Positions 30,285-64,000 of a stretch of DNA of 64,000 nucleotides are shown piece after piece; the stretch's first letter is position 1, and each line of letters opens with the position of its first letter. Position numbers and translations under genes: made by a program. The stretch is from Escherichia phage 241Ecol014PP, in the sequence record OR062943.1; one strand, given 5' to 3'. Below the pieces are notes generated by a model that was not told the origin of the DNA, did not search any database, and was given only the letters and a program-made list of their open reading frames with translations.

Positions 30285-30785
30285 GTGAAAATTAAGATCT
30301 TTGCTATTATTTTGAGCGCATTTTTATCGCTGCCTGTTGTTGCAGCACCAAAACAAAAAGTATATCATACTTGCAAGCCCTCAGATACTAAGGAAAACAT
30401 TCTGGCATGCAATATCTACAGGGAAGCTAGAGGAGATGGCACGATGGGTATGCTGGCATCTGGGTTTGCCACACTGAACAGGAAATCCCACCCTAAATAC
30501 CCAGACACTATAAGAAAGATTGTCTACCAACCTAACCAATTTTCGTGGACAAACCACGGCAAAACTTTTAAGGTGACAGAAAAAGATTCATGGGATCACG
30601 CTAAAAGTCTTGCAAAGATGCTTCTAAAGGTTTATAATAACAACCATGTTGCATACATGGCTATGGATATAACAGGTGGAGCAACACACTACCATACAAC
30701 CAAAGTACGACCGAAATGGGCAAAAAAGATGCAGAGGACAGCTCAATTCGGGAACCATATCTACTACAAGGAGCGCAATAAATGA
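30285..30785 (+). CDS. SleB-like cell-wall hydrolase (putative endolysin) with signal peptide
   Basis: GTG start after GGAG; N-terminal MKIKIFAIILSAFLSLPVVAAP signal-like segment; NIYREARGDG region fits SleB/Hydrolase_2 pattern. Confidence 0.55.
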   Translation: MKIKIFAIILSAFLSLPVVAAPKQKVYHTCKPSDTKENILACNIYREARGDGTMGMLASGFATLNRKSHPKYPDTIRKIVYQPNQFSWTNHGKTFKVTEKDSWDHAKSLAKMLLKVYNNNHVAYMAMDITGGATHYHTTKVRPKWAKKMQRTAQFGNHIYYKERNK

Positions 30786-32764
30786 TTGTAAACAGTAATG
30801 AAACTAAAGCAGTGCTAACCGGAAATATGGAGGTCACCAGGGGCTCAATTTCTCTGAACAAAGAGACTTTTGGGCTAATCATTAAAGGGATTTACGAAGA
30901 TAAGGTGCTGGCAAGCTGCCGTGAACCAATCTTCAATGCTGTAGACTCCCATGTTGAGTCTGGACGGGGTGATGTACCGATCATCATTCACTCCCCTACA
31001 GACCTTGAACCATACTTCTTTGTGCAGGACGTTGGATTGGGCATGTCAGAAGAGATGGTCCGCAACACGTTCATGAACCTTGGAGAGTCAACCAAGCGCA
31101 ACAGCAACGCTCTGGTAGGTAATAAAGGTGTTGGTTCAAAGGCTCCGTTCAGCATGGTGGACACTTTCGATGTTATCAGTGTGCACAATGGTGTTGAAAG
31201 CACATATCTATTGTTCTTGGATCAGGGTATCCCAAACGTTACCAAGATCCGCGAGCGGAAGACTAAAGAGCACAACGGGGTAAAAGTTCAGTTTCATGTT
31301 AAGAAAGAGCATGTCCTGAAATATCGCACTGCTATTGCATCGTGCTTACGCTACGCGAAGTTTCCGTTCACCGTCACCGATCCCATGACCAGTAAGATGC
31401 TGGAAGGTGACAAGGTTGAGGCGCAGTATCAATACGAGAAAGATGGTTGGAAAATGACCATCCTGAAAGGTTATACCAGCTCTGACGAGAGTCGCGTGGT
31501 AATGGGTCACCAACCTTACCGCTCCAAGTTCCTGGAAACATTAACCGATTATCCTGCGATCTGTGTAGAAATCCCTATCGGGGATTGCAATATTAACCCT
31601 GGGCGCGAATGGACCATAGAGGGTCACGACGATGGTGGATTCCAAGAGCGTTTGGAGGCTTTTGTCAAAGAAGGTATCCGTCTTCGTGGGGCAGAAGTTG
31701 TTGCAGAACTGGAGACGGCAAAAACCTCCGCAGAAGCACGTGAAATGATGAAGAATAGTGGAGTGTTCGGACACATCTTCGGCAAAAACTTTATGTGGAA
31801 CCGTTGGGAAGAAACAGGGCTTGGCGACTTAGGCGATTGTGAAATTTTCGCTGGCGGCTTAAATAAAGGCCGCATAGGCTATGCTCGTTACGGAAAGTCG
31901 GAGTTCTTACGGGGGGTCTACTTAGTATTTAACGACGGAGACGGCAAATATAACCGAAATAAGTGTAACTACTTAAGCGAGATCACCGGACGCAACGTTT
32001 TCTATTGCCGTAACACGGATCTGGTGGAAGAGTTTAAAGAAGCGGCACACCACCCGTTCTTTGCAGATACGGTCAAATTGTTATCAGAGCTCCCTCGCCG
32101 ACCTGTAAAGAAAGGTGAAACAAAAACTCACTATGAGCCAGGGTATTGGGTTAAAAAACTTGAGAAAGACGGTTACTTCCGTCGTGAGCGTATTACTAAG
32201 GCAGAGTTCAAGAAGATTAAGCACTGCATTCCTTATGAGGGTGATATCCAACGTGGAAGTTGTTGGCTGGGACAGCTAAGTAACATCTACCAGCAAAATT
32301 ATGACCGTGTGCGTGCGGCACTCCAGATTCCTGAAGGGGAAGATCTGTACCTGGTATCAGAATCTCGTCTGCTTTGGACTGATCCTGATTGCCAGTATGT
32401 TACAGAGAAGAATGTGGAACATTTGTTGAAAGAGGATGCTTGGAAATTCTTACTAACTCGCGCAGCAAATGAAACTTCATATGACAGCCTGTATAGACAA
32501 TTAGGGAAAATTATCCCCATGCAAGATTTTGGAAATTATCAGCCACATTTCCACAAGTGGGAAGGTAACACCACGTGGAAGCACAGTGAGCTAAATCATC
32601 GTGCCAAAATCTTAATCGCCAACCGAGTCAAGTGCGGGAAGGCCTATATTGCAAGATTGGAAAAGAAATACCCACTTTTGAAGCATGTAGGCTTGAAATA
32701 TTGGGACACCCCTGCTATGATTGAATACCGTGAACTGATTGACACAAAGAATAACACCAACTAA
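30782..32764 (+). CDS. rIIA: rIIA-like protein (N-terminal GHKL ATPase fold)
   Basis: 660 aa; ETKAVLTGNMEV N-terminus, NAVD / DVGLGMSEE / GNKGVGSKAPF boxes typical of HATPase_c as in T4 rIIA; rIIB-like gene follows. Confidence 0.55.
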   Translation: MIVNSNETKAVLTGNMEVTRGSISLNKETFGLIIKGIYEDKVLASCREPIFNAVDSHVESGRGDVPIIIHSPTDLEPYFFVQDVGLGMSEEMVRNTFMNLGESTKRNSNALVGNKGVGSKAPFSMVDTFDVISVHNGVESTYLLFLDQGIPNVTKIRERKTKEHNGVKVQFHVKKEHVLKYRTAIASCLRYAKFPFTVTDPMTSKMLEGDKVEAQYQYEKDGWKMTILKGYTSSDESRVVMGHQPYRSKFLETLTDYPAICVEIPIGDCNINPGREWTIEGHDDGGFQERLEAFVKEGIRLRGAEVVAELETAKTSAEAREMMKNSGVFGHIFGKNFMWNRWEETGLGDLGDCEIFAGGLNKGRIGYARYGKSEFLRGVYLVFNDGDGKYNRNKCNYLSEITGRNVFYCRNTDLVEEFKEAAHHPFFADTVKLLSELPRRPVKKGETKTHYEPGYWVKKLEKDGYFRRERITKAEFKKIKHCIPYEGDIQRGSCWLGQLSNIYQQNYDRVRAALQIPEGEDLYLVSESRLLWTDPDCQYVTEKNVEHLLKEDAWKFLLTRAANETSYDSLYRQLGKIIPMQDFGNYQPHFHKWEGNTTWKHSELNHRAKILIANRVKCGKAYIARLEKKYPLLKHVGLKYWDTPAMIEYRELIDTKNNTN

Positions 32765-32774
32765 GGAGACCAAG

Positions 32775-33980
32775 ATGATTTTCATCTACGAACATTTCAA
32801 AACTCGTAAAGAAGCACGCGACCGCCGTGCAGAACTTGAGAGGAAGGGTTTCACATGTGCCATTGAGAAAGGTAACACAACCTGGACACTGGCAGTGGGT
32901 GCCCCAGAGGTGTTCGATCCTGACCGTGACAGCGTCTGCTACACCCGTGAGGATTTTGAAACCCGTGAAGAGGCCCGTTTATTCCGCTATGGACTGGAAG
33001 ACAACGGTAAGTACGCCATGATCTTAGACTTAGGTGAGGGTTCCGTTAAACGTTGGGGTGTGGTATACCCACTGTGTGTTGTTCACGGTGTGGGGTTCAC
33101 TGGGGTGGCAATCAAGTCAGAAGAACCTTTAGTAGAAGTCAAAGATCCGGTGCTGGAGGTGGTGAGCAGTGTGTCTCAGCAACAGACTCGAAGCATCGAG
33201 CCTTTAGTGGTTATTTGCGGGGAACTCCTCCAGATCACCTGCAACGAAGGCATTTTTGAAATTCGCCGCAGTGAAAGTGAGGAAGTTTACCAGAAAGTCT
33301 TCGACCATATCTCTGTTCAGGAATATGACGAGGCAATTGGTGAAATCCTTGTCTGGTTGGAACGCAAGAATGAGTTCACCACACTTGCAGACAACCTGAT
33401 CATGAAGGATGGTAAGCTCTACTACTACGGTGTAGAGATGCGATCCACCATTGCAAAGAAAATTGAGAAAGATTATGCAGACGGAACACTGGATGACCGC
33501 TATGTGAAATTCTTAGTTCGCCTGCTACGCAATCCTTCTGCAAAATCTGTAAACATGCTCTACGATTTTATGCAGGCCAATGATATTCAGATTGCAGAAG
33601 ATGGTCGAATCATTTGCTACAAAGGGGTTCAGTTTAACGGAAGCAAGTGGGTGGACTGGCACAGTGGTAAAGTTCCACAATACCAGGGTGCTTTTGTATC
33701 CATGCCTCGTAACTTTGTAGAGGATGATCCGGAAGCTGCGTGCTCCTATGGCTTACACTGCGCCAGCAAAGAGTATGCAAAGAGCTACGGTACTGTAATG
33801 ACTGTCATGGTTGATCCTGCAGATGTGGTTAGTGTGCCATACCAACACAATAGCGCCAAGTGCCGTGCATGCCGATATGAGATTGTGGTAGCTCCGGAAG
33901 CACGCAAGGACGGAGACCCGATTGAATACGTGGTTGACCGAGACGGCAACACTATCGACATTCTTTACGAGGAGGCGTAA
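32775..33980 (+). CDS. rIIB: rIIB-like protein
   Basis: ATG 32775 after AAGGAGA; C-terminal blocks LYDFMQANDIQIAEDG, SYGLHCASKEY, VDPADVVSVPY..CRYEIV resemble T4 rIIB as recalled; follows rIIA. Confidence 0.45.
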   Translation: MIFIYEHFKTRKEARDRRAELERKGFTCAIEKGNTTWTLAVGAPEVFDPDRDSVCYTREDFETREEARLFRYGLEDNGKYAMILDLGEGSVKRWGVVYPLCVVHGVGFTGVAIKSEEPLVEVKDPVLEVVSSVSQQQTRSIEPLVVICGELLQITCNEGIFEIRRSESEEVYQKVFDHISVQEYDEAIGEILVWLERKNEFTTLADNLIMKDGKLYYYGVEMRSTIAKKIEKDYADGTLDDRYVKFLVRLLRNPSAKSVNMLYDFMQANDIQIAEDGRIICYKGVQFNGSKWVDWHSGKVPQYQGAFVSMPRNFVEDDPEAACSYGLHCASKEYAKSYGTVMTVMVDPADVVSVPYQHNSAKCRACRYEIVVAPEARKDGDPIEYVVDRDGNTIDILYEEA

Positions 33981-36992: not shown

Positions 36993-37757
36993 TTGAAATT
37001 TATCTACAAAGAACACTACCACAAAGGTGTTGTGTGGAGTCTATTTGACGGATCTGGTGGTGCAGTCATTGACTGGGCAAAAGCTGGGTACCTGTGCCTG
37101 TGCTTTAATGCAGAAGGTGCTGATCACGGCAGTTATGCAGAGGTGATAACCGATCATCACAACATTCACTATGTGGATTATTGGATTGACCCATGGTTCC
37201 CTCAGGAAACTTTTTGCATGTACCCAGCTCCAGACTTTATTCTTGCATTTCCTCCGTGCACGCATTTAGCGGTATCGGGTGCTGCACATTTTAAGAAAAA
37301 GCTGGCTAAGGACCCCATGATCCAAATTAATGCTGTAAAGGATGCTCGGGTTGCGGAAGAGCTGGGAGAGATTTACGATTGCCCGTGGCATGTAGAGAAT
37401 CCTGTTGGTGTTATGTCCACACTGTGGCGCAAACCTGATTACCGTTTTCATCCTTCTGACTATGGCGGGTATTTACCGGAGGATGATGTAAACCCCTGGT
37501 TTCCTGAATTTATAGCTCCACGTGATGCCTATCCAAAAATAACTTGCGGCTGGATAGGTAATGGATTTATAATCCCGGCCACAAAACCTGTCCCGCAAAT
37601 AGTTGACGCGGTTAGTGGGTATTCAATGCAACACGCCAAGCTGGGTGGAAAGAGTGCAAGAACGAAGATGATTCGAAGCCTCACACCACGTGGCTGGGCA
37701 AAAGCCGTATTCTTAGCAAACGAGCCTGCAGTAAGGAGCAGAATTAATGGGAAGTAA
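36993..37757 (+). CDS. C5-cytosine methyltransferase-like protein (compact, no obvious target-recognition domain)
   Basis: TTG 36993 after AGGAGA (track ORF starts inside the terminator); motif I LFDGSGGA, motif IV-like FPPCTHLAVSG, motif VI-like HVENPVG. Confidence 0.4.
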   Translation: MKFIYKEHYHKGVVWSLFDGSGGAVIDWAKAGYLCLCFNAEGADHGSYAEVITDHHNIHYVDYWIDPWFPQETFCMYPAPDFILAFPPCTHLAVSGAAHFKKKLAKDPMIQINAVKDARVAEELGEIYDCPWHVENPVGVMSTLWRKPDYRFHPSDYGGYLPEDDVNPWFPEFIAPRDAYPKITCGWIGNGFIIPATKPVPQIVDAVSGYSMQHAKLGGKSARTKMIRSLTPRGWAKAVFLANEPAVRSRINGK

Positions 37758-39825
37758 ATTTATGGCATCTGCATACAACCGTTTCGGTGAGCCAAACCCG
37801 GTTGCAACAAGATACAAAAGTGGGGGTAGTATGAAACGAGACTATCGTGATGAAAAAGAGGTTGAAACTGTAGAGACTGTTTTAGAAAATACTAAAATTG
37901 TCCCTGTCCCACAACAAAATATCGGTCTGATGGCTGCACAATATTTTGGTGTGCGATCAGCATTGTCCCAAGAAGACGGTGTGACAGTCACTGCAACATA
38001 TTTCCCATATTACGACCGCTACGGGAATCTGTCCGGTTTCAAAAAGCGTGACTGGACTAAGCCGAAAGAGCAGAAAGGACACTGGTCTGTAGTAGGCATC
38101 GTAAAGGCCAACTCCCAGATGTTTGGTCAAAAGTTGTGTGCATCTTCCAACAACCGTAAGCAGATTAACGTTTGTGAGGGGGAAGGCGATGTTATTGCAG
38201 CATGGCAGGCTGCATATCAGATACAGGTAAAAGGGATTCTCACCAACGCTAAAGCTCCGGCAAAGGTGAAGCAGTGGGCTAAAGAGGTCCAGGACGGGAT
38301 CGACGCAGTTATCAACGGTGGTGATCTGGCAGGAAAACCCTGCCTGCCTTTTGTTGGAATTAACTGTGGATGTGCAAACGCAGTAGATACTTTTGCAAAC
38401 AATGAGAAGTTTATCCGTAGCTATGGAACAGTTGTGCTGGCAATGGATAACGATGCAGCTAACGAGGTAGAAAAGCAAAAACACGTCATTAAAGGTGTTG
38501 AGGCAACTCACAATATCGCAGCATTTTTGATGGCTGATAACGTTTACCACGTAGAATATCCCGGTGAGGTAAACGATCCTGACGGTGTAAAAGATATCCG
38601 TGACATGCTGAAGGCTAAAAAGCTAGAAGATATTGTCAACATGTTCCGGCATCCTGTTAAATATGTACCTGATGCTGTGTCGGATTTAGAAGACTTCTCT
38701 ATCGAGTCTTTGCGGAAAAAGACTTCCAACGGGGTGGATATCAGCGCAGAGTTCCCAAAACTGCAAAAAATGCTAAAAGGCTTGCACAAAGGGACACTCG
38801 TAATGCTTACAGGTCCATCGGGGGGCGGTAAAACAACTATAGCTAAAAAACTGGAACACTGTATTGCAAGATACCTAATGGACCCAACATGCCCGAAGGC
38901 TGATGACTACGAGGAGGATGATCGTCTATGCATGATCCATCTTGAGGAGGACCCAGAGGAAGCAATTAACTCCTTGTATGCAAACCAGTTGGGGTTCGAT
39001 GTTAAAGAGTTTGTTGAAGATCCTAGCCGGTTTTTAACTGATCAGGAACACGCAGAGATTCACCAATCATGGGCAAAAGCCGGAAAAATCAAAGTGTTCA
39101 AACATTTCGGGTCTATTCCGGTGGACGAGTTGATTACCAAGCTTAAGCAAATGGTTTGCCTGTACCATTGCCGTTATATTGTGCTGGATCACCTGTCCAT
39201 GGTAATTTCAGGGCTTAATGTTAAGGATGAGCGAAAAGAACTGGACATGGCTATGACCCAACTGGCTGCGTTTTGTAAGCAGTTTAATGTGTTTATCTTG
39301 GTGATCGCTCACCTCAAACGTACAGAGATTGTGCCCCCTAAGGACAAGGATGGTAACCCGTTACCTTTCTGGTATCCTGTGCGAAAAGAGAATTTGCGAG
39401 GATCGGCTGGGCTTGAGCAGTTGAGTTGGGTAGTCATAGGTGTCGAGGCCGAAGAAATGGTGGATCGTTCTCGTGGGCGTGTCCGTCTGGTAAGTCTTAA
39501 AAACCGTCCAGCAAAAACTTTAGGTATTGCTGACACTTTAGTTATGGACCCGCACACAGGTAAGTTCCATGATGCCAGTAATTGGTACTGGGACAAAGAA
39601 ATGCAGATGTTTACAGACGGAGAAGGTGGGGAGGTTGTTTGGAGACCTCAGGCTATGTTTGAGGATCAGGAGCATGCAGTTGTAGAAACACCTGTTGGCA
39701 AGGTTGTGGCTGATAAGGTTGTAACTTCTACTGTTAAACCTGTTGACACGCAGGAAGACCTCCAGTACGATGATCCATCCTCTGACCCTGTCCCTGGTTT
39801 TGAGGATGATGAAACGCCTTTTTAA
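37747..39825 (+). CDS. primase-helicase (T7 gp4-like: TOPRIM + DnaB-type helicase)
   Basis: TOPRIM CEGEGDVIAAW and LAMDNDAAN; Walker A GPSGGGKTT; 692 aa; no N-terminal Cys4 zinc ribbon. Confidence 0.7.
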   Translation: MGSKFMASAYNRFGEPNPVATRYKSGGSMKRDYRDEKEVETVETVLENTKIVPVPQQNIGLMAAQYFGVRSALSQEDGVTVTATYFPYYDRYGNLSGFKKRDWTKPKEQKGHWSVVGIVKANSQMFGQKLCASSNNRKQINVCEGEGDVIAAWQAAYQIQVKGILTNAKAPAKVKQWAKEVQDGIDAVINGGDLAGKPCLPFVGINCGCANAVDTFANNEKFIRSYGTVVLAMDNDAANEVEKQKHVIKGVEATHNIAAFLMADNVYHVEYPGEVNDPDGVKDIRDMLKAKKLEDIVNMFRHPVKYVPDAVSDLEDFSIESLRKKTSNGVDISAEFPKLQKMLKGLHKGTLVMLTGPSGGGKTTIAKKLEHCIARYLMDPTCPKADDYEEDDRLCMIHLEEDPEEAINSLYANQLGFDVKEFVEDPSRFLTDQEHAEIHQSWAKAGKIKVFKHFGSIPVDELITKLKQMVCLYHCRYIVLDHLSMVISGLNVKDERKELDMAMTQLAAFCKQFNVFILVIAHLKRTEIVPPKDKDGNPLPFWYPVRKENLRGSAGLEQLSWVVIGVEAEEMVDRSRGRVRLVSLKNRPAKTLGIADTLVMDPHTGKFHDASNWYWDKEMQMFTDGEGGEVVWRPQAMFEDQEHAVVETPVGKVVADKVVTSTVKPVDTQEDLQYDDPSSDPVPGFEDDETPF

Positions 39826-39883: not shown

Positions 39884-42800
39884 ATGAGCATGTATAGCTT
39901 CGATTTTGAGGCCTCCGGGCTTTTGGAAGACCCAGATCTTTATTACCACTGCGGCCTGTTTAAAGAGCTGAATAAGAACCGTTTTATGCTGTTCCTCCCT
40001 CTAAATGACCGCACACACTACTCCGAGGAGGATATAGAGAAGGCTAAGAACTTCATTCTGGCAAAGAAAACTCTTTATAAAGATTTTGAAGTTCGCATAG
40101 CAGATTTTTCGGAGTTGGAAGGTTGGCTTACAGGCAATTCCGACTGGTCACCAACAGCTTTGAACTGCCATAACTGCTACAGTTATGACTTTATGCTGAT
40201 GGAGAAATTATCCGGTATTCATTTTGATATGTTCCGTGATCCTAAATGCATGGGTACTATCAACGATCACCAGGTTAACCTGTTCGATACGTTGGCGATG
40301 AGCCGAATCTTGTGGCCTGATCGCCCTTTACCAAAAGGTTGTCCGGACTCTGTATTCAACCCGGTTACTAAGAAAATGCAGCCTGTTGGTGCCCACGGCC
40401 TTATGGCATGGGGCTACGCCCTTGGTAACCAGAAAGTTCAAATTGATGACTGGCGTGATCTTCCGTTGTGGAAGTATGTGGATCGTGTATTCGAGGACGT
40501 TATCATCCAGGAGCTGCTCTGGAAAGAGCTGGTAGCGGAATCAAAAGGTGTATTCTACGGCAAATCTGACATGCAGAACTTTATGTACGATCCTGCCAAA
40601 GAGAAGCCGAAAGGGTTCAAGAAGATCACCTGGAAGAACGCATTACGCCGGGGTATGCTGCAGCACTTCCTGATGGAGCTGCAGGCCCGTCAGGGTGTAT
40701 ACTTCGACATAGATGGAGCTATTGCTTTACGTGACCGTTGCGATGCGTGGATGAAAGAGATCGCTGATCGTGTTGAACCTCAACTTCCTTTAAAAGAGTT
40801 GTCAATGTCTCAGCGGCCCAAGTTCCCTGAAAAGCCGTTTAACCAAGATGGGACAATCTCCAATAATGGTTGGAAATGGTTAAAAGATAAGCTTGGCTAT
40901 CCTGTGGACATGAGTGCTTTAGAGTTCAAAGCCCCGCCTAAGCGAGCATTTACCTCCACAGGAGATGTCAGCAAGATGGGGATAAAATGGTGTGAAGAGA
41001 TGGGCTGCAAAGACCCCGATAAGATGGCTGATTTCTTGAGAGGCTATATTAAGGGCACTTCCACACCACACCCTTTACCTAAAGAGCTGATGGATCAGGC
41101 GATAAGTGATCTACAGCAGAAGCGAATGCCGGACTGCAAGATACCTATGAAAATCAGCAATCAGGACGACATTAAGCGATACCTGATCAGTGCTGGTTGG
41201 CTTCCGACAATGTGGAGAACTAAGGATGTAACTAAAGACAGCAAGAAGAAAGCTCTACCTGATGCAGATGTTGATGCACGAGTATATGCATATATGGACG
41301 AGCTTTTAGAGTCAGAGTATTGTGATCTGATTATCAACTTCTGGAACAAAACTGATGCTAAGTTCCAGACAACCGTGCACAAGTTCCGAAGCTTTCCTAA
41401 CTCCGAAAGGATTAAAAAGGAAGTGTTCGGGAAAATACGTAGAAAAGCCAGAGCACTTATTACTTCTCCGCAGCTGAAAGATACGTTTGGACACCTATGC
41501 CCAAATCTTGAAAAATTGAACGGAGAGATGGCTAAAGATATCGTCTTGTGGTTATCATTGCGAAACCGCAGATCGGTCCTTGATCCAATCAAGGAGGATA
41601 AGGTTGATACTGGTCTTCTTAATCACCCACGTTTGAAGATTGACCATAAGCTTCCTGCTAAAAGTTCTGGGTTAACAAACACTTCCCGACAGAAACACAG
41701 TATTTGTGCAAACATGCCTAAACCATCTCCTAAAGTGGTTATGGGTAAAGAGATGCGTAGTCTGTGGGGTGTTCCTCCAGGATACTTTGAGATCGGTATT
41801 GACGGGTCCAACTTAGAGCAGCTTATCGGGGCTTGGGGTGCCTTTGAGTTCGACAACGGCCTGTATTATGATGTTGTAAGTAACGGCGATGCACACTGTT
41901 ATTCAGGAGATACACAAATTCTCACGGAGAAAGGGTGGGTGAGGTTTGAAGATCTTGATCCGGGAACACAAGTGTTCCAGTACGATCACAACACCTCGTC
42001 GATGAACCTTGTTACTCCATTAAATTACGTTAAGCGTAGTTATTGTGGGGATATGTATCATTTCCACAACAGCAGTGTGGATTTTATGGTTACAGATCAA
42101 CACAGGATGCTGACCGTGGATCACAGAAGCAATAAATTGTTTGAAGATTTGGCAAAAGACCTGAAAGCAGGTAAAGGGTCTAATTCAGGAAGAAGGTTTA
42201 TCCATGCGGCAGAGTTTTATGGGAATACAACCTTATCTCCTGCCCAGATTAATTTGCTTATTGCTATTCACGATGATGGGCACTTGCATACAAATAAGGA
42301 CGGCAGCATCGTGTGCAGGATTCAGGTCGGGAAGGGCAGAAAAGTTGCAACGCTTTTAGATACTTTTTCTGCTCTAAGCCTTAGTTATGTAGAGCAGAGC
42401 GGGAAAACCACAAAAGGGGGCTTACTGGCGAGAAGGTTCCAATTCCACGTTCCGTCCTGGGTATTTGAGTTTTTGGACAGCAATAAGGATTTCACCTACA
42501 ACCTGATGGACCTTGATAAAGAATCTAAAAACCTGTTTATAGCTTCTTTATCTAACTGGGACGGATGGGTATCTTCCGAAGGTGGAAAAGTTGCCTACTA
42601 CTCTCAGTCCGAGTGCAGGAAGAAATCTGTAGAGGTTGTGTCTGCGCTGGCTACTCAGTGTGGTTTACGGAATAATACGGTGGCGATTCACAAAAAAGGT
42701 CGTTCCGTACAGCACAGAATCACGATTGGTAGCAAACAGAGAGCAGGGTTGCTGACACTATCTAAAGAGTCTGTCGAGGTGAGTGGTTCTTTGGTTTATT

Positions 42801-43276
42801 GCGTTACCGTCCCTTCTGGAGCAATCATTGTGAGAAGGAATGGTAAAGTGGCAGTGTGCGGTAACTGTAATAACGCCAAAGCTTACTCTTCTGTAGCAGG
42901 CAAGGAGATTTCCCGTAACGATGGTAAGCCTGTCACGTATGGGGTTATGTACGGGGCACAAAAAGATAAAGTTGCAGATATGCTGGATATCTCCCCAGAG
43001 TTGGGGCAAAGGGTGATCGATGCACTTTGGGATGCCAACCCCGGTCTTAAGGGGCGCAAAGAGGATCTGGAGAAATTCTGGGAAGCAACAGGTAAGAAGT
43101 TTATCTACTCTTTTGATGGTCATGCTATCTGGACTCGATCTAAACACTCTTTACTTAATGCATACCAACAAAATGGTGGTGCATCGCTGTGTGACTTAGT
43201 TGGGATACTCATGCACCACCAAATGGTGAAGCGTGGGTGGTACGATGAAGGTGTTCGTCGTATTATTTATTACCAT
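39884..43276 (+). CDS. family-A DNA polymerase, exon 1 (contains intein)
   Basis: Exo I FDFEASGL; motif A-like IDGSNLEQL; motif B-like RNDGKPVTYGVMYGA; ORF stops 2 codons after the His expected to begin motif C (HDE). Confidence 0.7.
41897..42865 (+). mobile_element. intein (323 aa) within DNA polymerase, putative LAGLIDADG endonuclease core
   Basis: in-frame insert between motifs A and B: starts CYSGDTQILTEKG, block B-like VTDQHRM, ends VYCVTV..NGKVAVCGN with +1 Cys; LLIAIHDDGHL and FIASLSNWDGW candidate LAGLIDADG motifs. Confidence 0.65.
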
Positions 43277-43552
43277 AAATAACATTGTGGCTTCATAGAG
43301 TAATCTATGTCGAATAACCTCTTTAACTGCGGGAAGCCTAAACCTTATGGCAAGGTAATCCGCAACGAAGCGCTCAAAAGAGCGAACGCTCAGAGGCCAT
43401 TCCGAAAGGAAGTAGACCAGCAAGTGCGGTCGAAATGGGAGGATTCCTGTGGTTGCTTATCATAGGAATATGAGATGGTCCGATCCTACGTGAAAACGTA
43501 TGGCTATGCACGTAATGGTGCGGGGTAGCTTAACGACCTACCTGAACTATTG
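43277..43552 (+). mobile_element. group I self-splicing intron (ORF-less) in DNA polymerase gene
   Basis: 276 nt; exon 1 ends ..CCAU pairing with GUGG guide at 43287-43290; P-like CTGCGGGAAG 43327, Q-like AATCCGCAAC 43357, P7 AGACCA 43414 / TGGTC 43476; last nt G; joins H|DE of motif C. Confidence 0.6.
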
Positions 43553-43926: not shown

Positions 43927-44574
43927 ATGGAAGAATGGAGAAAACTGGTTGGCAGGGAGGCCAACTATGAAGTTAGCAGTAAAGGAAGGATTAAAAGGCT
44001 GTCTTACCTGAGGAAGTACAGTAACCAAACAGGTAAAGTTACTTTCAAAGCTGTCCCTGACAGGATTTTAAAAGGTAGCGTAGACAGTAGCGGTTACATT
44101 CAAGTAAATGTAGATGGAAGATCGGAATTGCTTCACAGGTTAATTGCCGAGACCTTTCTAGAGCCTCCTTCAAAAGAGCTTGTAGAGGAATGTAAGGCAG
44201 CAGGGCTGGACTATGTGCCGATCAATCATAAAGACCATAACCGCCTAAACAATGCTGCTGACAACCTTGAATGGGCCTCGCCTTCAAAAAATGCACAAGA
44301 TGTGGACTACGACTACCATAAAACAAGAGGGGAAAGTTCATACTGTGCAAAACTTAAAGAGCGAGATGTTGACGAAATATTAAAGCTTTCCAAAACAGGT
44401 ATGTCACAGCAAGCTATAGCAGATCTTTTCGGTGTTAATCAGATAACCATTTCCAATATCTTGACAGGTAGGAGTTGGGCATGGTACACTGGGATACCTA
44501 AAACCGCAAGGTGTAAAAACAAAAGGGGGAGATCCCCGAAAAGCATGTCTGAGCAAAATTTCTCTGTAAGCTGA
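43927..44574 (+). CDS. HNH homing endonuclease (NUMOD4-like N-term, HTH C-term)
   Basis: EEWRKLVG..YEVSSKGRIKR N-terminus; INHKDHNRLNN..NLEW HNH core; C-terminal MSQQAIADLFGVNQITISNIL helix-turn-helix. Confidence 0.6.
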   Translation: MEEWRKLVGREANYEVSSKGRIKRLSYLRKYSNQTGKVTFKAVPDRILKGSVDSSGYIQVNVDGRSELLHRLIAETFLEPPSKELVEECKAAGLDYVPINHKDHNRLNNAADNLEWASPSKNAQDVDYDYHKTRGESSYCAKLKERDVDEILKLSKTGMSQQAIADLFGVNQITISNILTGRSWAWYTGIPKTARCKNKRGRSPKSMSEQNFSVS

Positions 44575-52790: not shown

Positions 52791-53113
52791 CAGAGATCAT
52801 CATTTCAACTGCAGGGTATGTATTCCTGACAATCCTTGCGCTGACTATTTTGGTGGTGGTATATGGGATTGTTATTCTCCCTATTCTTGAGACAATTAGT
52901 TTGTGTCGGTGTTGGAGAAAGGCTTACGGTCCACAGCCGTGGAAGGACTGGCCCCACCTGGTGCACATAGCGTTCTCTTATGCCTACGATCACTCTAGCA
53001 GTGCATGCATAACCGGATACCACGCCCACAATTGGAGATGGGAAGGGTTGAGGAAGTGGAATGTTACAAAGACTATACCTCTGCGCATGTACAAAGGAAA
53101 AAGGAGGGATTGA
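52787..53113 (+). CDS. membrane protein
   Basis: 108 aa; long N-terminal hydrophobic segment YVFLTILALTILVVVYGIVILPIL. Confidence 0.4.
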   Translation: MTEIIISTAGYVFLTILALTILVVVYGIVILPILETISLCRCWRKAYGPQPWKDWPHLVHIAFSYAYDHSSSACITGYHAHNWRWEGLRKWNVTKTIPLRMYKGKRRD

Positions 53114-53757
53114 TGGGAATACCTGTTAAAGACAGAAAAATATGTGGTCGTGGAGTAAACGATTTAAAAGACAAAGTCCCAATGTACCAATCTGTTAATG
53201 GTAAGAGAGTACCAGAACCTCACTATGCTACATGGAAAGCATTATTCCAGAGGTGCTACGGCGATAACTCAAAGTACCATACAGGTTGTGAAGTTGTAGA
53301 AGATTGGTGGTTGTTCTCAGAATTCTGGAAATGGATGGATACACAAGAGTGGAAAAGAAACGCTAAGAAGTTCACTCTTGACAAAGATCTGAAAATCCCC
53401 GGAAACAGAATATACTCCCCAGAAACATGTATGTTTGCTCCACCACAAATAAACACCTTATTTGGCATAAGACAGGCAGCACGAGGGGATTTACCTTTGG
53501 GTGTGACACTTAGAAAAGATGTAAACAAGTACCTCGTGCATTGTCATCAAGATGGAAAAATTGTTCATGGTGGTCATTTCGCTGATCCGCAGATAGCACA
53601 CAAGGTGTGGCAAGAAATGAAACTTGAGGAGATGAAGCTTCAAGCTATTAAAAACAAAGATGAGATTTGGCTGTTCGCCATTAAACGTGCAATAACTATC
53701 CTTGAGAATGATTTGAAAAATAATAAGGAGACTATAACATTGGTGAAATTTATTTAA
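53113..53757 (+). CDS. HNH_3-type endonuclease
   Basis: ATG 53113 after AAGGAGGG; Trp-rich region then TLDKDLKIPGNRIYSPETCMFAPPQIN core; track ORF begins at 53005. Confidence 0.5.
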   Translation: MGIPVKDRKICGRGVNDLKDKVPMYQSVNGKRVPEPHYATWKALFQRCYGDNSKYHTGCEVVEDWWLFSEFWKWMDTQEWKRNAKKFTLDKDLKIPGNRIYSPETCMFAPPQINTLFGIRQAARGDLPLGVTLRKDVNKYLVHCHQDGKIVHGGHFADPQIAHKVWQEMKLEEMKLQAIKNKDEIWLFAIKRAITILENDLKNNKETITLVKFI

Positions 53758-54085
53758 GATATTTATGGTAGTATTTATTTTAAAATTATAAAAATTTTAG
53801 GTGATGAGGGAAAATATGTAATGGATTTTCCCTTATTTATCAGATATTTGCAGATATTTGGAAATCCTTAGAAAATCAGAAAATGGATCGAAAACTAAAA
53901 TGGATTTTTCAGGGTAGACACGATGAGCTGAACCACTCATCCTATCGTTTGCGGCATATTCCGGACTACCATTCCAGATTTTCCGCGTATGCTCACATCC
54001 TCCTACTAGAACTTCCCCCACTTATCCTTGACCTTTTATGGTAATAATATAACCACTATCTTGAAGTTGCGGTGCAGCTTTCCAG

Positions 54086-54173
54086 GTACTCGATCTGTTT
54101 TTCGTTTCAAAGATTGAATTTTCTGAAAATTTTTCTCGATAAATTTCTTAGTACTCGATCTGTTTTTCGTTTT
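54086..54173. repeat. 22-bp direct repeat pair (GTACTCGATCTGTTTTTCGTTT) within ORF-free region
   Basis: copies at 54086-54107 and 54151-54173; surrounded by further short repeats (AAATGGAT x3, CAGATATTTG x2). Confidence 0.6.
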
Positions 54174-54377
54174 CTGAATCAGATTTTCTGGAAATCGTTC
54201 CGGCGCTCGACCTAAAATTTTTGGGGGCGAAATCGATTTTTCGTTTTCAGAAATGGATTTTTAAAATTTATATATGGGGATATTTTATGGGATATTGTTT
54301 TATAGGAAATTGTTACGGAGGATAATTAGCATGCTAATTAAATTTATTAAATGTGAGGAGTTCTCATTTAGAATTTT

Positions 54378-54392
54378 GAATGATAATCATTC
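54378..54392. promoter_or_regulatory. 15-bp palindrome GAATGATAATCATTC (operator-like)
   Basis: near-perfect dyad symmetry directly upstream of first GC-rich element copy. Confidence 0.35.
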
Positions 54393-54409
54393 TCGTTTGC
54401 AGAATAACG

Positions 54410-54432
54410 GGCAGGCCCGGTGATTGTCTCCC
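54410..54432. repeat. GC-rich element, copy 1 (direct)
   Basis: GGCAGGCCCGGTGATTGTCTCCC; 22/23 match to reverse complement of 62071-62093. Confidence 0.6.
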
Positions 54433-54548
54433 GGCCCCTGTTGCCCCGGCTTGTTATTATAGTATCACACAGGACAAAGAAGGCAAGGATTTTTTGCATA
54501 AATTTTTAAATGATAATGATAACCGTTCTCATTTTATGCAGCGCCCAT

Positions 54549-54586
54549 CTCCGGTGGTTGTCTCCCCCGTCACCGGTGCCTGCCGT
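54549..54586. repeat. GC-rich element, copy 2 (direct, longer)
   Basis: CTCCGGTGGTTGTCTCCCCCGTCACCGGTGCCTGCC; matches reverse complement of 62051-62093 with few mismatches. Confidence 0.6.
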
Positions 54587-54755
54587 CCTTTCGATAGGTA
54601 TATTGTGCCACCTGGCGGGGCCGCTGTCAACACTTTTCAAAAAATTTTTCTAACCTGGTGCGCTAACCGTTGCAACCTGGCGGGGCCAGCCTGGCAGGGG
54701 GGTGAAAGCTTGCAAACCTGGTAGTAGGGTAAACAATTGAAGAGGAGGTACAAAA

Positions 54756-54914
54756 ATGAAAGGTAATGCTACTCACCTGGAAAATGTAGCGATTAATGAC
54801 GCTGAGGCTATCGCCCTGGTTGAAAAGGCTATGGCGGGAGCGTTGGAACATAAAGAAGAGTACGAAAAAATGGTGGTTAACCTGGAGGGGGGCGGCAGGT
54901 GGATTCTATCATAA
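54756..54914 (+). CDS. small hypothetical protein (52 aa)
   Basis: ATG 7 nt after GAGGAGG; below track cutoff. Confidence 0.4.
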   Translation: MKGNATHLENVAINDAEAIALVEKAMAGALEHKEEYEKMVVNLEGGGRWILS

Positions 54915-61997: not shown

Positions 61998-62006
61998 TCT
62001 TTACAA

Positions 62007-62037
62007 AACAGGGCTTGTTTTTGTCCTGTTTTTTGTT
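62007..62037 (+). terminator. rho-independent terminator
   Basis: AACAGGGC..GTCCTGTT stem then TTTTGTT. Confidence 0.55.
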
Positions 62038-62050
62038 ATACTTGTTTCAC

Positions 62051-62093
62051 GGCAGGCACCTGGCGACGGGGGGAGACAATCATCGGGCCTGCC
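62051..62093. repeat. GC-rich element, copy 3 (inverted relative to copies at 54410 and 54549)
   Basis: GGCAGGCACCTGGCGACGGGGGGAGACAATCATCGGGCCTGCC; ends GGCAGGC/GCCTGCC are self-complementary. Confidence 0.6.
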
Positions 62094-62118
62094 TGTCATA
62101 TAAGAACTATAAAAACCG

Positions 62119-62147
62119 TTGACATCTGCCAGGTGGTGGGGTAACAT
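62119..62147 (+). promoter_or_regulatory. sigma70-like promoter
   Basis: TTGACA, 17-nt spacer, TAACAT. Confidence 0.45.
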
Positions 62148-62819: not shown

Positions 62820-62845
62820 AGGGGCTTAAAGCCCCTTTCTTTTTG
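62820..62845 (+). terminator. rho-independent terminator
   Basis: AGGGGC-TTAAA-GCCCCT then TTCTTTTTG. Confidence 0.75.
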
Positions 62846-63449
62846 TCCGCTATTCCCTATCACAAACGGCCCCGCCTGACAAGTGGAATAATCAACAAGC
62901 CAGCAATTTCCCACACTGTACAAACATACAGGTAAAATAACTATTGCATAATTTTTCATTGTGTGGTAGCAGGGCCATTTTTACCCGTTTTTCCTCCCAA
63001 AATTGCACGTAATGCCGCTATTGCATAAATTTTAACCTGATGCACATCTTCAATATCTTGTCAACAAATAAAAATTCTTATAAGTCATACACTTACATAA
63101 CCACAAAAGCGCGTTCTACGTGAAAAATCGAGTATAACTATAGCCGCCAGATCTCAGAATTTACGTACGCTCACCATTCTATAGCCTGCTAAGTATTTAT
63201 TCCAACCATAGAATAACGGAATAGTCAATACCTGCATAAAATAATTATTCGTTTAAATTGCATAACATAAATCAGCCAGGGTGTCAACATTTTTCGTAAA
63301 CAGTCCGAAATTATCACTGTGAGTTATCATAAACAGAGAAATCTTTAGTCGTCTAATGTTTACTGTACGTTACTATACTAACCGGAATCATTAGATGACT
63401 AATAGAAAAGATAAGAAATAATCAACAATACAATTATTTTATCTGTAAC

Positions 63450-63680
63450 AATAAGGCAACTATGCAAACGAATGGCATGGCGCGACGGAGTCGCGACATA
63501 ATATAAAAGCAGTAACCATCACCCCCGTGATAGTTTGTCTGCAAACTATTAATCAGATCATAGTTGCCTTGTATTTAGTTAATCATGACATAACAAGCAA
63601 GGCAACTATAGATCTTCTAATAGTTGCCTTGCTTTTATATTATGTCATAAATTATTAACATGCAAACGAATGGCATGGCT
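63450..63680. repeat. operator-like repeat cluster (coordinates approximate)
   Basis: 11-mer AAGGCAACTAT in four alternating-orientation copies; 19-mer TGCAAACGAATGGCATGGC twice; 17-bp inverted pair GACATAATATAAAAGCA / TGCTTTTATATTATGTC. Confidence 0.55.
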
Positions 63681-63714
63681 TATCATTTTTGAGTAAATAG
63701 TCTACACGTGAACA

Positions 63715-63860
63715 GTTAGCTATGTAAACTATTAGTCATGTAAACCGTTAGGCATGTAAACAGTAGAGGGAGTGAATAGTGACAGCGTAAACAGTCAGGC
63801 ATGTCAATTATGTCAATCGTGTCAGTTATGTCACAGTATGTCTAAAGTGTCAGACAAGTT
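63715..63860. repeat. iteron-like periodic repeats (coordinates approximate)
   Basis: ATGTAAAC at 16-bp period (3-4 copies) then six 9-bp-period TGTCA units. Confidence 0.55.
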
Positions 63861-64000
63861 TTTCTCCTCTTTGTCAAGTGCTGCATGAAAAATTTACAAA
63901 CTGGTATGGTAGCATTTTTGCGGCCCTGTTTACATTCAGTAATGTATGTATGACCCTTGTTGTGTGGGCGTTTAGACGTCTAGACGGTTGGAAGTCTACA

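Follow-up and report, generated by a model that had tools for sequence, protein, structure and literature searches.

Anatomy of the non-coding region

The window analysed is a stretch of 64,000 nucleotides from Escherichia phage 241Ecol014PP (OR062943.1), an rV5-like Vequintavirus. Positions 53758-54755 contain no credible gene and are read as a conserved, modular cis-acting control region. It lies between the replication and middle genes and an early cassette of ~8 kb, which adjoins the genome end. The genes of a T7-like replisome lie upstream, a primase/helicase at 37747-39825 and a DNA polymerase at 39884-43282. The sole annotated neighbour is an HNH endonuclease, and most relatives are without the HNH gene. 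No tRNA or tmRNA genes were found. The region is routinely annotated as hypothetical proteins, and no published description of it was found in the literature on rV5 and Vequintavirus intergenic regions, origins, phage Fur boxes and transcriptomes. Its parts are as follows, from left to right, with an additional copy of the GC-rich element from the early cassette in the last line.

53804..53836, plus strand: hairpin with T-rich tail (inverted repeat I17, 12-nt arms, 92% complementary)
53841..53860, plus strand: two tandem copies of CAGATATTTG, part of the GATATTT cluster (TRF: period 10, 100% matches)
53862..53910, plus strand: conserved block with short repeats of the AAATGGAT(C/T) type, near-invariant among five Vequintavirus genomes
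53911..54085, no strand: fast-evolving spacer, 63-75% identical to three more distant relatives and 84-91% to the closest
54086..54150, plus strand: repeat unit 1 with the head GTACTCGATCTGTTTTTCGTTT, carrying TCGATAAATT at 54136-54145
54151..54214, plus strand: repeat unit 2 with an identical 22-nt head, 65 bp after unit 1
54215..54261, plus strand: degenerate repeat unit 3, 74 bp after unit 2 (family D1, 70% identical to unit 2)
54236..54385, no strand: extreme AT-rich tract with 24% GC, a candidate DNA-unwinding element, second-lowest 150-bp GC content in the 64 kb
54323..54340, no strand: perfect 18-bp palindrome TAATTAGCATGCTAATTA, conserved in five Vequintavirus genomes bar one position
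54350..54368, no strand: box 0, a degenerate 19-bp palindromic operator 29 bp before box 1, with 4 mismatches to AATGAKAATNATTMTCATT
54376..54405, plus strand: weak promoter candidate TTGAAT-18-CAGAAT with box 1 in its spacer, read from the sequence (8/12)
54379..54397, no strand: box 1, AATGATAATCATTCTCGTT, Fur-box-like and including a 15-bp palindrome, 15/19 to GATAATGATAATCATTATC
54402..54454, minus strand: GC-rich conserved element, copy 1, minus-strand sense ...GGGAGACAATCACCGGGCCTGCCCGTTATTC (sequence model R1, 39.6 bits)
54459..54486, minus strand: candidate leftward promoter P_L1, TTGCCT-16-TACTAT with an upstream TG, a consensus match that is sub-threshold here
54515..54533, no strand: box 2, AATGATAACCGTTCTCATT, in a duplicated unit, 16/19 to the Fur consensus read as GATAATGATAACCGTTCTC
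54536..54596, minus strand: GC-rich element, copy 2, a partial R1 match (13 bits) and the best-folding copy (z = -2.6)
54602..54630, minus strand: candidate leftward promoter P_L2, TTGACA-17-CACAAT with TG, a consensus match
54606..54722, no strand: GC-rich stretch with five CCTGG sites, reaching the first early gene (repeats D3 and D8), of variable length among relatives
54739..54758, plus strand: strong ribosome-binding site and ATG of the first early gene (54756-54914), GAAGAGGAGGTACAAAAATG, the right boundary of the region
62046..62100, plus strand: GC-rich element, copy 3, in the early cassette, GAGACAATCA sense, just downstream of TGTTATACT (R1, 30.2 bits)

The initial annotation had listed repeats, a palindrome and GC-rich copies, and every item was located. 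The 22-bp direct repeat pair is the 22-mer GTACTCGATCTGTTTTTCGTTT at 54086-54107 and 54151-54172. The shorter direct repeats comprise the two copies of CAGATATTTG at 53841-53860 and 2.1 copies of a 15-bp repeat at 54283-54314. The 15-bp palindrome is GAATGATAATCATTC at 54378-54392, and the two GC-rich copies share CCGGTG(A/G)TTGTCTCCC at 54417-54432 and 54551-54566. What had been missed is that the palindrome forms part of a Fur-box-like array, that the relevant promoters are minus-strand promoters and that conservation of the architecture reaches far outside the genus.

The hairpin probably acts as an intrinsic terminator for the plus-strand operon upstream, which would make it the left boundary of the control region. 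An equivalent hairpin, followed by TTTTGATATTT, is present in relatives without the HNH gene. GATATTT occurs four times in the region, compared with 0.28 per kb window-wide, and clusters of three to five copies of (T)GATATTT open the non-coding region in every genus examined. Equivalent GAAATGGTTTTC repeats have been found in Seuna-, Mydo- and Henunavirus. The spacer that follows is 63-91% identical overall, compared with 92-99% for the DNA on its right. A promoter-like TTGACC...TAATAT at ~54027 was dismissed, since its spacing is wrong and it sits in this non-conserved spacer.

The 22-mer is the head of a 47-57-nt unit, present in three copies at spacings of 65 and 74 bp. The motif TCGATAAATT in unit 1 equals the high-affinity consensus of H-NS. 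The two 150-bp windows of lowest GC content in the 64 kb start at 53710 and 54236, and the former, the lowest of all, lies at the region's left edge. GATC shows no enrichment (6 per kb here, compared with 9.9 per kb window-wide), while CCWGG reaches 12 per kb against 3.7 per kb for the whole window.

One to four 19-bp palindromes at an exact 29-bp spacing stand directly beside the AT-rich tract. Their family consensus is TGAGAATnATTCTCA, which differs from that of Fur at two symmetric positions (G/C preference). Box 1 has 2 mismatches to TGATAATNATTATCA and matches 13 of the 14 specified positions of TGATAATnATTATCA, the 7-1-7 motif; box 2 has 2 mismatches to the family consensus. A duplication of ~135 bp, to which box 2 belongs, is shown by the repeats D5 and D11. 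At the position homologous to the degenerate box 0, good boxes are found in GAP31, Mydovirus and phAPEC8. A perfect TGATAATCATTATCA occurs in the relatives 4MG and Klebsiella phage DP. The palindrome consensus yields five matches over the 64 kb, where 0.72 would be expected; the boxes at 54379-54397 and 54515-54533, each read on both strands, make up four of these. The Fur 7-1-7 pattern yields three matches in the window against 0.41 expected, only one of which (54381-54395) lies within the region. Palindrome consensus, Fur pattern and GC features thus exceed chance.

The GC-rich sequence shared by copies 1 and 2 recurs at 62071-62086 on the opposite strand. In all 20 loci that span the region, the R1 model detects one copy per genome, always beside a box. 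The box-proximal half of the element is 80-100% conserved, the far half 50-60%. A general promoter-proximal role was rejected, because the element is single-copy beside the box, with two extra copies in Vequintavirus. The product of the early gene 54756-54914 matches phrog_21957, and a run of near-consensus sigma-70 promoters follows this gene.

Conservation of order and spacing

The same order of modules is found in ~19 phages of two subfamilies. GATATTT repeats, a variable spacer and three phased units of ~65-75 bp lead into the DNA of lowest GC content. It is followed by the array of 19-bp palindromes, which match the Fur-box consensus and keep the exact 29-bp spacing, and then by the conserved GC-rich block. 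Two minus-strand promoters of the sigma-70 type, at fixed offsets and directed into the array, complete the series. Order and spacing are conserved in Vequinta-, Seuna-, Mydo-, Certre- and Henunavirus, and most modules are also present in Stephanstirmvirinae.

In the within-genus comparison, positions 54100-54700 are 92-99% identical to four relatives. The DNA from 54086 to ~54700 is, as judged by such identities, conserved to the same degree as the flanking genes, that is, as coding DNA. Relative to the anchor, the heads of units 1 and 2 are located at -302 and -237, and G(T/G)(A/T)CTCGATC heads are found at -300/-310, -224/-232 and -157/-169 in Seuna-, Mydo- and Certrevirus. The offsets of the three units are conserved in four genera. 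The spacings are 65/74 bp in this phage; other Vequintavirinae have 74-78/63-67 bp and phage SD2 has 67/75 bp. In Stephanstirmvirinae the units differ in sequence. Such a three-unit pattern would be expected for iterons that co-evolve with a phage protein. The only segment detected by BLAST across subfamilies consists of a box plus ~45 nt, with box 1 as its core. A scan of IMG/VR for the exact pattern of the box plus core gave one contig.

Coding potential

The earlier statement that 53758-54755 lacks convincing coding potential holds. Many records annotate the sole long ORF, 54380-54724 (rV5 ORF198, phrog_14993), and it matches phrog_14993 at 5.5e-64; this family, however, was built from automatic annotations of the same DNA. 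As the initial annotation had remarked, a ribosome-binding site is missing: no Shine-Dalgarno sequence precedes the ATG, which itself lies inside the palindromic operator. Substitutions among five Vequintavirus genomes are distributed 8:7:11 over codon positions 1:2:3, thus without a third-position bias, and one relative carries a frameshifting 1-nt insertion. Within the genus the product measures between 92 and 114 aa; other genera close the frame after 26-27 codons, and no Pfam hit was obtained for the ORF. That the region encodes a small protein is therefore very improbable.

Promoters and transcripts

Leftward transcription through the region is likely, as suggested by two conserved promoter matches on the minus strand; all promoter calls are consensus matches only. 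In 11 genomes from other genera of Vequintavirinae, a minus-strand site homologous to P_L1 scores at least 9/12, at +98 to +101 relative to the anchor. Three genomes of the phAPEC8 group have their P_L1 call at +130/131 with another hexamer pair. A promoter-like minus-strand site at +242 to +268, corresponding to P_L2, was present in each of the 16 genomes scanned. The hexamers of these leftward promoters are conserved and the spacers variable. The plus-strand candidate TTGAAT-18-CAGAAT was missed by the promoter scan. It scores 8/12, and its -11 A is a T in Mydovirus (CTGAAT), so it is not universally a promoter.

The initial annotation had also considered a locus for a non-coding RNA. The transcription that this implies is likely in the leftward direction, whereas a structured RNA found no support. 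At the gathering score, Rfam detected in the window only a group I intron elsewhere, and the region gave two noise hits (E > 4) at E <= 10. RNAalifold predicted no meaningful consensus fold for the GC-rich element of 17 genomes (3 pairs at -2 kcal/mol). Folding energies lay near the level of shuffled controls, with z-scores between -0.5 and -2.6, and no U-tract follows GC copy 2 or the 62-kb copy. A structured sRNA, an antiterminator or an intrinsic terminator at the GC-rich element was hence dropped. A type I toxin-antitoxin system was also dropped, because the small ORFs downstream of the candidate starts on both strands have no start codon preceded by a ribosome-binding site. The frame of 26-27 codons in Seunavirus starts upstream of any predicted transcript. 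The pseudo-ToxI locus of phiTE was rejected as a homologue; it shares only GGTGATT and occupies another place in the genome.

Genome ends

A packaging signal, another option of the initial annotation, does not fit the published genome ends, which lie ~9.5-10 kb downstream, beyond the early cassette. The region is rich in repeats, free of genes and placed just before the early genes, and GATATTT repeats also flank the terminal repeat of Mydovirus. The read-determined ends of relatives, however, map elsewhere. Among Vequintavirus phages, the ends of HdK5 and EdH4 are defined, include a terminal redundancy of 458 bp (PMC6563267) and correspond to about window positions 63854-64311. Position 1 of HdK5 aligns to ~64311 of the window, where the redundancy starts, and several Vequintavirus records begin at the point of the HdK5 end. 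Mydovirus KPP-1 has a 514-bp terminal repeat, and its short direct terminal repeats were scored as T7-type by PhageTerm (PMC9862379). The record of phage DP contains a 514-bp repeat as a repeat_region. In KPP-1 and DP this repeat lies ~10 kb downstream of the homologous element. With terminal repeats at this distance the packaging reading fails, and a pac or cos site or a terminus at 53758-54755 is barely conceivable. Certrevirus phiTE has been reported as circularly permuted (PMC3475682), so the structure of the ends may differ among genera.

The palindromes of the array also occur in the terminal non-coding region, at positions 10-160 of HdK5 and in the terminal repeat of KPP-1 and DP. They are consequently not specific for an origin.

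A candidate replication origin and its alternatives

The reading tentatively preferred here, as a real possibility that falls short of probable, is that the region may be the primary replication origin of the phage, activated by transcription and resembling the T7 primary origin and lambda ori. An origin had been one of the options of the initial annotation, and phased units, AT-rich tract, palindromes and promoters make it the best anatomical fit; the origin function itself is deduced from these parts. Host RNA polymerase would start at the tandem leftward promoters P_L2 and P_L1 and yield a G-rich RNA. Transcription would then cross the 19-bp palindromic operators, possibly bound by host Fur or another dimeric protein, and enter the most AT-rich DNA of the window, flanked by the three helically phased units of ~65-75 bp. 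A phage protein would assemble on these units. Opening or priming there would launch synthesis by the T7-like primase-helicase and the family-A polymerase of the phage. The arrangement on the DNA agrees with this course: the tract at 54236-54385 is located downstream of P_L2 and P_L1 on the minus strand, as in transcription-activated origins of the T7 primary or T4 oriF/oriG type, and three phased units at 65/74 bp accompany up to four palindromes at 29 bp, as in iteron-type origins such as lambda ori and those of plasmids. Packaging explains the one other large non-coding region, at the terminus; this counts for an origin here. The third copy of the GC-rich element in the early cassette and the recurrence of the palindromes at the terminus were counted against it. 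No initiator gene is recognisable in the flanks, where every neighbour falls into a PHROG of unknown function and lacks a Pfam hit. The region contains no TTWTNCACA DnaA box, nor one within one mismatch of TTATCCACA, and no IHF site; with these sites absent and GATC not enriched, an oriC-like arrangement of 13-mers and Dam sites was dropped. The GC skew shows no sign change here in the direction expected for an origin, although the transcription strand confounds this measure.

Alternatively, the palindromes may be genuine operators of host Fur, and the region an iron-responsive control switch or RNA locus and not an origin, which is considered rather unlikely. Fur could repress the rightward TTGAAT-18-CAGAAT promoter, which converges on P_L1 and would generate a short pair of sense and antisense RNAs, or it could block leftward transcription. 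On multiplying phage DNA the boxes would in addition titrate Fur, and host iron uptake would be derepressed; that Fur sites in multicopy have this titrating effect is known (FURTA assay, cited in PMC2189734). The matches of box 1 to the 19-bp consensus (15/19) and to the 7-1-7 motif (13/14), together with the perfect TGATAATCATTATCA of 4MG and DP, speak for Fur. Between subfamilies BLAST recognizes only the box and ~45 nt while the repeat units diverge, which fits the constraint of a conserved host factor. Box 1 is placed exactly between -35 and -10 of the plus-strand candidate, the classical position of a repressor, and the predicted starts of this candidate and of P_L1 face each other at ~40 nt across the conserved GC block. 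The family consensus, however, is unlike that of Fur at the two symmetric positions, and natural Fur clusters overlap at steps of 3 or 6 bp (PMC2189734), whereas these boxes are discrete and 29 bp apart. A consensus match may also not mean binding, since predicted Fur sites such as exbD and ygaC can fail to bind (PMC2189734). The plus-strand promoter is weak (8/12) and loses its -11 A in Mydovirus, and an RNA locus would have neither a terminator nor a conserved fold nor an Rfam hit. A distant BLAST search with 54330-54660 against 5,426 E. coli genomes gave no match; the boxes were accordingly not recently captured from a host promoter. More doubtful still is the wider proposal that Vequintavirinae and Stephanstirmvirinae have wired host Fur into their control DNA. 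Operator arrays at both boundaries of the early cassette would gate leftward transcription by iron status and soak up Fur as the genome amplifies, and the derepressed iron uptake of the host would benefit the iron-dependent ribonucleotide reductases of the phage.

An element for DNA entry or the docking of a host factor, analogous to the injection stop signal of T5, is improbable. The first ~9.5 kb, made up of the terminal repeat and the early cassette, would enter and be expressed, and the region would pause or organise the entry of the remainder; in a variant, the leftward promoters would pull in the remaining DNA, as in T7. The region is ~9.5 kb from the physical end, or ~7% of the genome, and bounds the early cassette, P_L1 and P_L2 are directed away from the near end, and related boxes recur inverted at the terminus. 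The first-step-transfer DNA of T5 comprises 7.9% of its genome. The untranslated Repeat Region 3 of T5, ~1.2 kb with direct repeats, inverted repeats and palindromes, is more conserved than the neighbouring ORFs and contains DnaA boxes and an inverted partner nearer the end (bioRxiv 10.1101/866236). The region studied here is likewise a conserved, ORF-free repeat region that bounds terminal early genes. Two-step injection has, however, not been reported for these phages, the paired DnaA boxes of T5 are absent in the region, the terminal repeat measures 0.46-0.5 kb instead of 10 kb, and the injection-stop model of T5 is itself unproven.

Phages of the rV5 type and their relatives are common in collections for phage therapy and biocontrol. 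A candidate origin or control region with parts at nucleotide resolution marks a site to avoid or to exploit in genome engineering. If the palindromes bind Fur, phage development would be tied to iron limitation, the prevailing condition in the gut and in infected tissue. To our knowledge, a strictly virulent phage with an iron-sensing operator array would then be without precedent.

Comparison with known systems

The pseudo-ToxI locus of the rV5-like phage phiTE is also a non-coding locus with repeats in a phage of the same subfamily. It differs in sequence, is located beside tRNA genes and a terminase gene and is not homologous. Repeat Region 3 of T5 has more in common with the present region. 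Both are ORF-free over ~1-1.2 kb, combine repeats with palindromes, exceed the neighbouring ORFs in conservation and bound terminal early genes, and both have boxes of a host-factor type with an inverted partner nearer the end. The boxes here are Fur-like instead of DnaA boxes, and the region lies outside a very short terminal repeat. With enterobacterial Fur boxes (19-bp GATAATGATAATCATTATC; 7-1-7 reading), the array shares a match of 15-16/19, perfect in some relatives, the presence of multiple copies and a position over the spacer of a candidate promoter. It departs from them in the 29-bp spacing in place of overlapping clusters with 3/6-bp steps, in the G/C preference at two symmetric positions and in its setting, a virulent phage with no iron-related gene downstream.

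Lambda ori consists of four 19-bp dyad-symmetric iterons beside an AT-rich segment and is activated by transcription. Up to four 19-bp palindromes at a fixed spacing are likewise found here beside an AT-rich tract, with promoters that read through. The spacing is 29 bp, compared with ~24-25 bp in lambda, and the palindromes resemble the site of a host regulator. The array lies outside any initiator gene, and no O-like initiator could be recognised in its neighbourhood. The primary origin of T7 is formed by the tandem promoters phi1.1A/1.1B and a subsequent AT-rich region near the boundary of early and middle genes. The origin proposed here is predicted from its anatomy. The promoters here are of the host sigma-70 type and not of the phage-polymerase type, and an operator array and three units of ~70 bp are placed between and beyond promoter and AT-rich tract. 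In both phages two tandem promoters at the boundary of the early region are directed away from the nearer end into an AT-rich tract, and both combine short direct terminal repeats with a gp4-like primase-helicase and a family-A polymerase.

Genome context

Region 53758-54755 of the window is matched by 121 phage records (megablast), nearly all of them Vequintavirus (rV5-like Escherichia myoviruses) with 88-95% identity. No description of it was found in the searchable literature, and GenBank records show hypothetical ORFs here or nothing. The initial annotation had placed it between replication genes and an early cassette, correctly, since genes for a Dda-like helicase, a DNA methyltransferase, a primase/helicase, a family-A DNA polymerase and an endonuclease VII lie upstream and a promoter-dense cassette of small genes (54756 to ~62810) downstream. 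A near-consensus sigma-70 promoter stands before each cassette gene, and terminators follow many of them; 35 promoter-like sites were counted versus 21.3 +/- 5.2 in shuffles. Small genes of unknown function fill ~4 kb after the replication genes, followed by an HNH endonuclease gene (53005-53757, 250 aa; phrog_953, 1.9e-62). It is present in few relatives (YP-6, SYGMH1) and absent from most. Most Vequintavirus genomes align only from ~53852, so a free-standing homing endonuclease has probably inserted at the border of the control region.

The polymerase gene is split by a group I intron (43267-43502; Rfam RF00028, 64.7 bits) at the 3' end of ORF 39884-43282; an HNH endonuclease ORF (43927-44574) follows the intron. 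An intein or inserted domain is suggested by an internal segment of the polymerase ORF (~335 aa, residues ~664-998), which matches unrelated PHROGs (PhoH-like, RNR, ThyA). Genes for RIIA-like (660 aa) and RIIB-like (413 aa) proteins adjoin in the replication/middle module (30782-33980).

Anatomy and conservation

Features of region 53758-54755, from left to right
Leftmost: hairpin, probable terminator of the upstream operon
Right of the hairpin: GATATTT repeat cluster
Between this cluster and the spacer: conserved block with AAATGGAT-type repeats
53910-54085: variable spacer
Right of the spacer: three repeat units with head GTACTCGATC, spacings 65 and 74 bp
Between repeat units and 18-bp palindrome: AT-rich tract, 24% GC
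Between this tract and the array: perfect 18-bp palindrome
54350 (box 0), 54379 (box 1), 54515 (box 2, in a duplicated unit): array of 19-bp palindromes, consensus AATGA(G/T)AAT-N-ATT(C/A)TCATT
Next to the boxes: GC-rich block, box-proximal half ACGGGCA...GGTG(A/T)TTGTCTC, 80-100% conserved
54486->54459, minus: promoter-like site P_L1
54630->54602, minus: promoter-like site P_L2
54606-54722: CCTGG-rich stretch, reaching to the first early gene

The repeats reported initially, a 22-mer pair (54086 and 54151), a 15-bp palindrome (54378-54392), both copies of the GC-rich element and various shorter repeats, were all recovered at their positions. No other windows of the 64 kb are as low in GC as the 24%-GC tract and the region's left edge.

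Judged by sequence comparison, the region is functional DNA. Identity to four relatives is 92-99% over 54100-54700, no lower than in the flanking genes; in the spacer it is 63-75% in three relatives and 84-91% in the closest. In distant BLAST searches, ~54343-54447 is the one segment still found in phages too diverged for anything else to align: PVP-SE1, GAP31, 4MG, Proteus phage Mydo and Klebsiella Mydoviruses; Pectobacterium, Cronobacter and Enterobacter Certreviruses and Erwinia Hena1; and the Stephanstirmvirinae phAPEC8, ESCO13 and SD2. The homologues always lie in a syntenic unannotated gap. One to four 19-bp palindromes occur per genome, spaced by exactly 29 bp.

Seuna-, Mydo- and Certrevirus carry three G(T/G)(A/T)CTCGATC-headed units at -300/-310, -224/-232 and -157/-169 from the palindrome, distances almost equal to those in the window. 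In Stephanstirmvirinae three units again occur with this period (67 and 75 bp), but their sequence differs. Repeat unit 1 sits in an AT-rich, A-tract-rich segment and contains TCGATAAATT (54136-54145), which we take to match exactly the high-affinity H-NS nucleation motif of Lang et al. 2007; H-NS may be drawn to the region.

All 16 genomes scanned have P_L2-type sites at +242 to +268 from the palindrome, and the other Vequintavirinae genera have P_L1-type sites at +98 to +101; the window's P_L1 scores 8/12, below the scan threshold. Hexamers are conserved, spacers variable. CCWGG (Dcm) sites cluster in GC-rich promoter spacers such as TTGACAgcggccccgccaggtggCACAAT (54606-54722; early promoters, e.g. 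62119-62147), a style shared by early promoters of Certre- and Seunavirus relatives. Downstream of P_L2, Seuna-, Mydo- and Stephanstirmvirinae loci (L003, L005, L007, L013, L015, L018) have a conserved GC-rich block of ~100 nt (CTACCGGCGATCCACC...GTTAGCCCCGCCTTTTCGCCGTGGGGTGGCG; ~+290 to +480 from the box). Before the early cassette, these loci also have a small gene on the minus strand (60-88 aa, PVP-SE1 gp201 type); Vequintavirus lacks both and has the duplicated box-plus-GC unit instead.

Transcription and coding potential

As to the non-coding RNA locus suggested initially, leftward transcription from the region is likely, but a structured RNA was unsupported. The GC-rich element has a third copy (GGCAGGCACCTGGCGACGGGGGGAGACAATCATCGGGCCTGCC; 62046-62100, plus) in an early-cassette intergenic gap, with a terminator (62005-62032) that has an extended -10 (TGTTATACT) on one side and the next promoter (62119-62147) on the other. 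Because this copy is on the cassette's coding strand just past a promoter, GAGACAATCA is suggested as the transcribed sense, the minus strand in region 53758-54755.

The long ORF 54380-54724 lacks a ribosome-binding site and behaves as non-coding, as had been claimed. It matches phrog_14993; its product found no match in Pfam. Substitutions are distributed 8:7:11 over codon positions, one relative has a frameshifting insertion, and length varies from 92 to 114 aa, with the frame shut after 26-27 codons in Seunavirus. A protein-coding gene is highly improbable.

Genome ends

HdK5 and EdH4 were linearised at abrupt read ends, with terminal redundancies of 458 bp (Korf et al., PMC6563267). HdK5 position 312 aligned to window 64000, which puts the HdK5 end at ~64311. 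The Mydovirus KPP-1 has a 514-bp repeat (PMC9862379), equal to the repeat_region with which the phage DP record begins; it maps ~10 kb downstream of the homologous element. The region therefore lies ~9.5 kb from the genome end, the early cassette between. The proposed packaging signal was thus not borne out, and a packaging site has as slight a chance as a gene. The same palindromes recur in the terminal non-coding region.

A second large ORF-free region closes the early cassette (~62840-64000, on to ~64311 in HdK5, L022 1-1468), with repeat families of its own (GTTTACA, CATGACAATAAT). By homology with HdK5, the last ~150 nt of the window fall within the 458-bp terminal repeat. Beyond the window, HdK5 has three more Fur-box-like palindromes, one within 30 nt of the genome end.

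Possible functions

The palindromes match the enterobacterial Fur box (box 1, 15/19; box 2, 16/19). Box 1 fits 13/14 specified positions of the 7-1-7 motif; 4MG and Klebsiella phage DP carry this motif without a mismatch. The GAGAAT variant found in the palindromes is also part of the aerobactin operator. The palindromes stay invariant across subfamilies while the repeat units change, which fits recognition by a conserved host protein. However, their consensus has G/C at two symmetric positions where Fur prefers T/A, and they lie 29 bp apart, whereas natural Fur clusters overlap. Earlier binding tests turned out negative for some Fur-consensus matches (PMC2189734). A Fur-gated regulatory or antisense locus with Fur titration as a side effect is a rather unlikely reading; a DNA-entry element like T5 iss is considerably less probable. 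The remaining probability goes to something beyond these readings.

A transcription-activated replication origin is tentatively favoured. Tandem promoters would read into the palindrome array, then into the most AT-rich DNA and the phased, lineage-specific repeat units. We infer all functional steps from anatomy, conservation and position, the only properties observed. The phage has T7-like ends and a T7-like replisome, and the region sits at its early/middle boundary. Both origins and operator arrays are familiar element types; new are the particular architecture and the way in which a virulent phage may use Fur. The origin is favoured because layout, position, ends and replisome together resemble the T7 primary origin and lambda ori most closely in logic.
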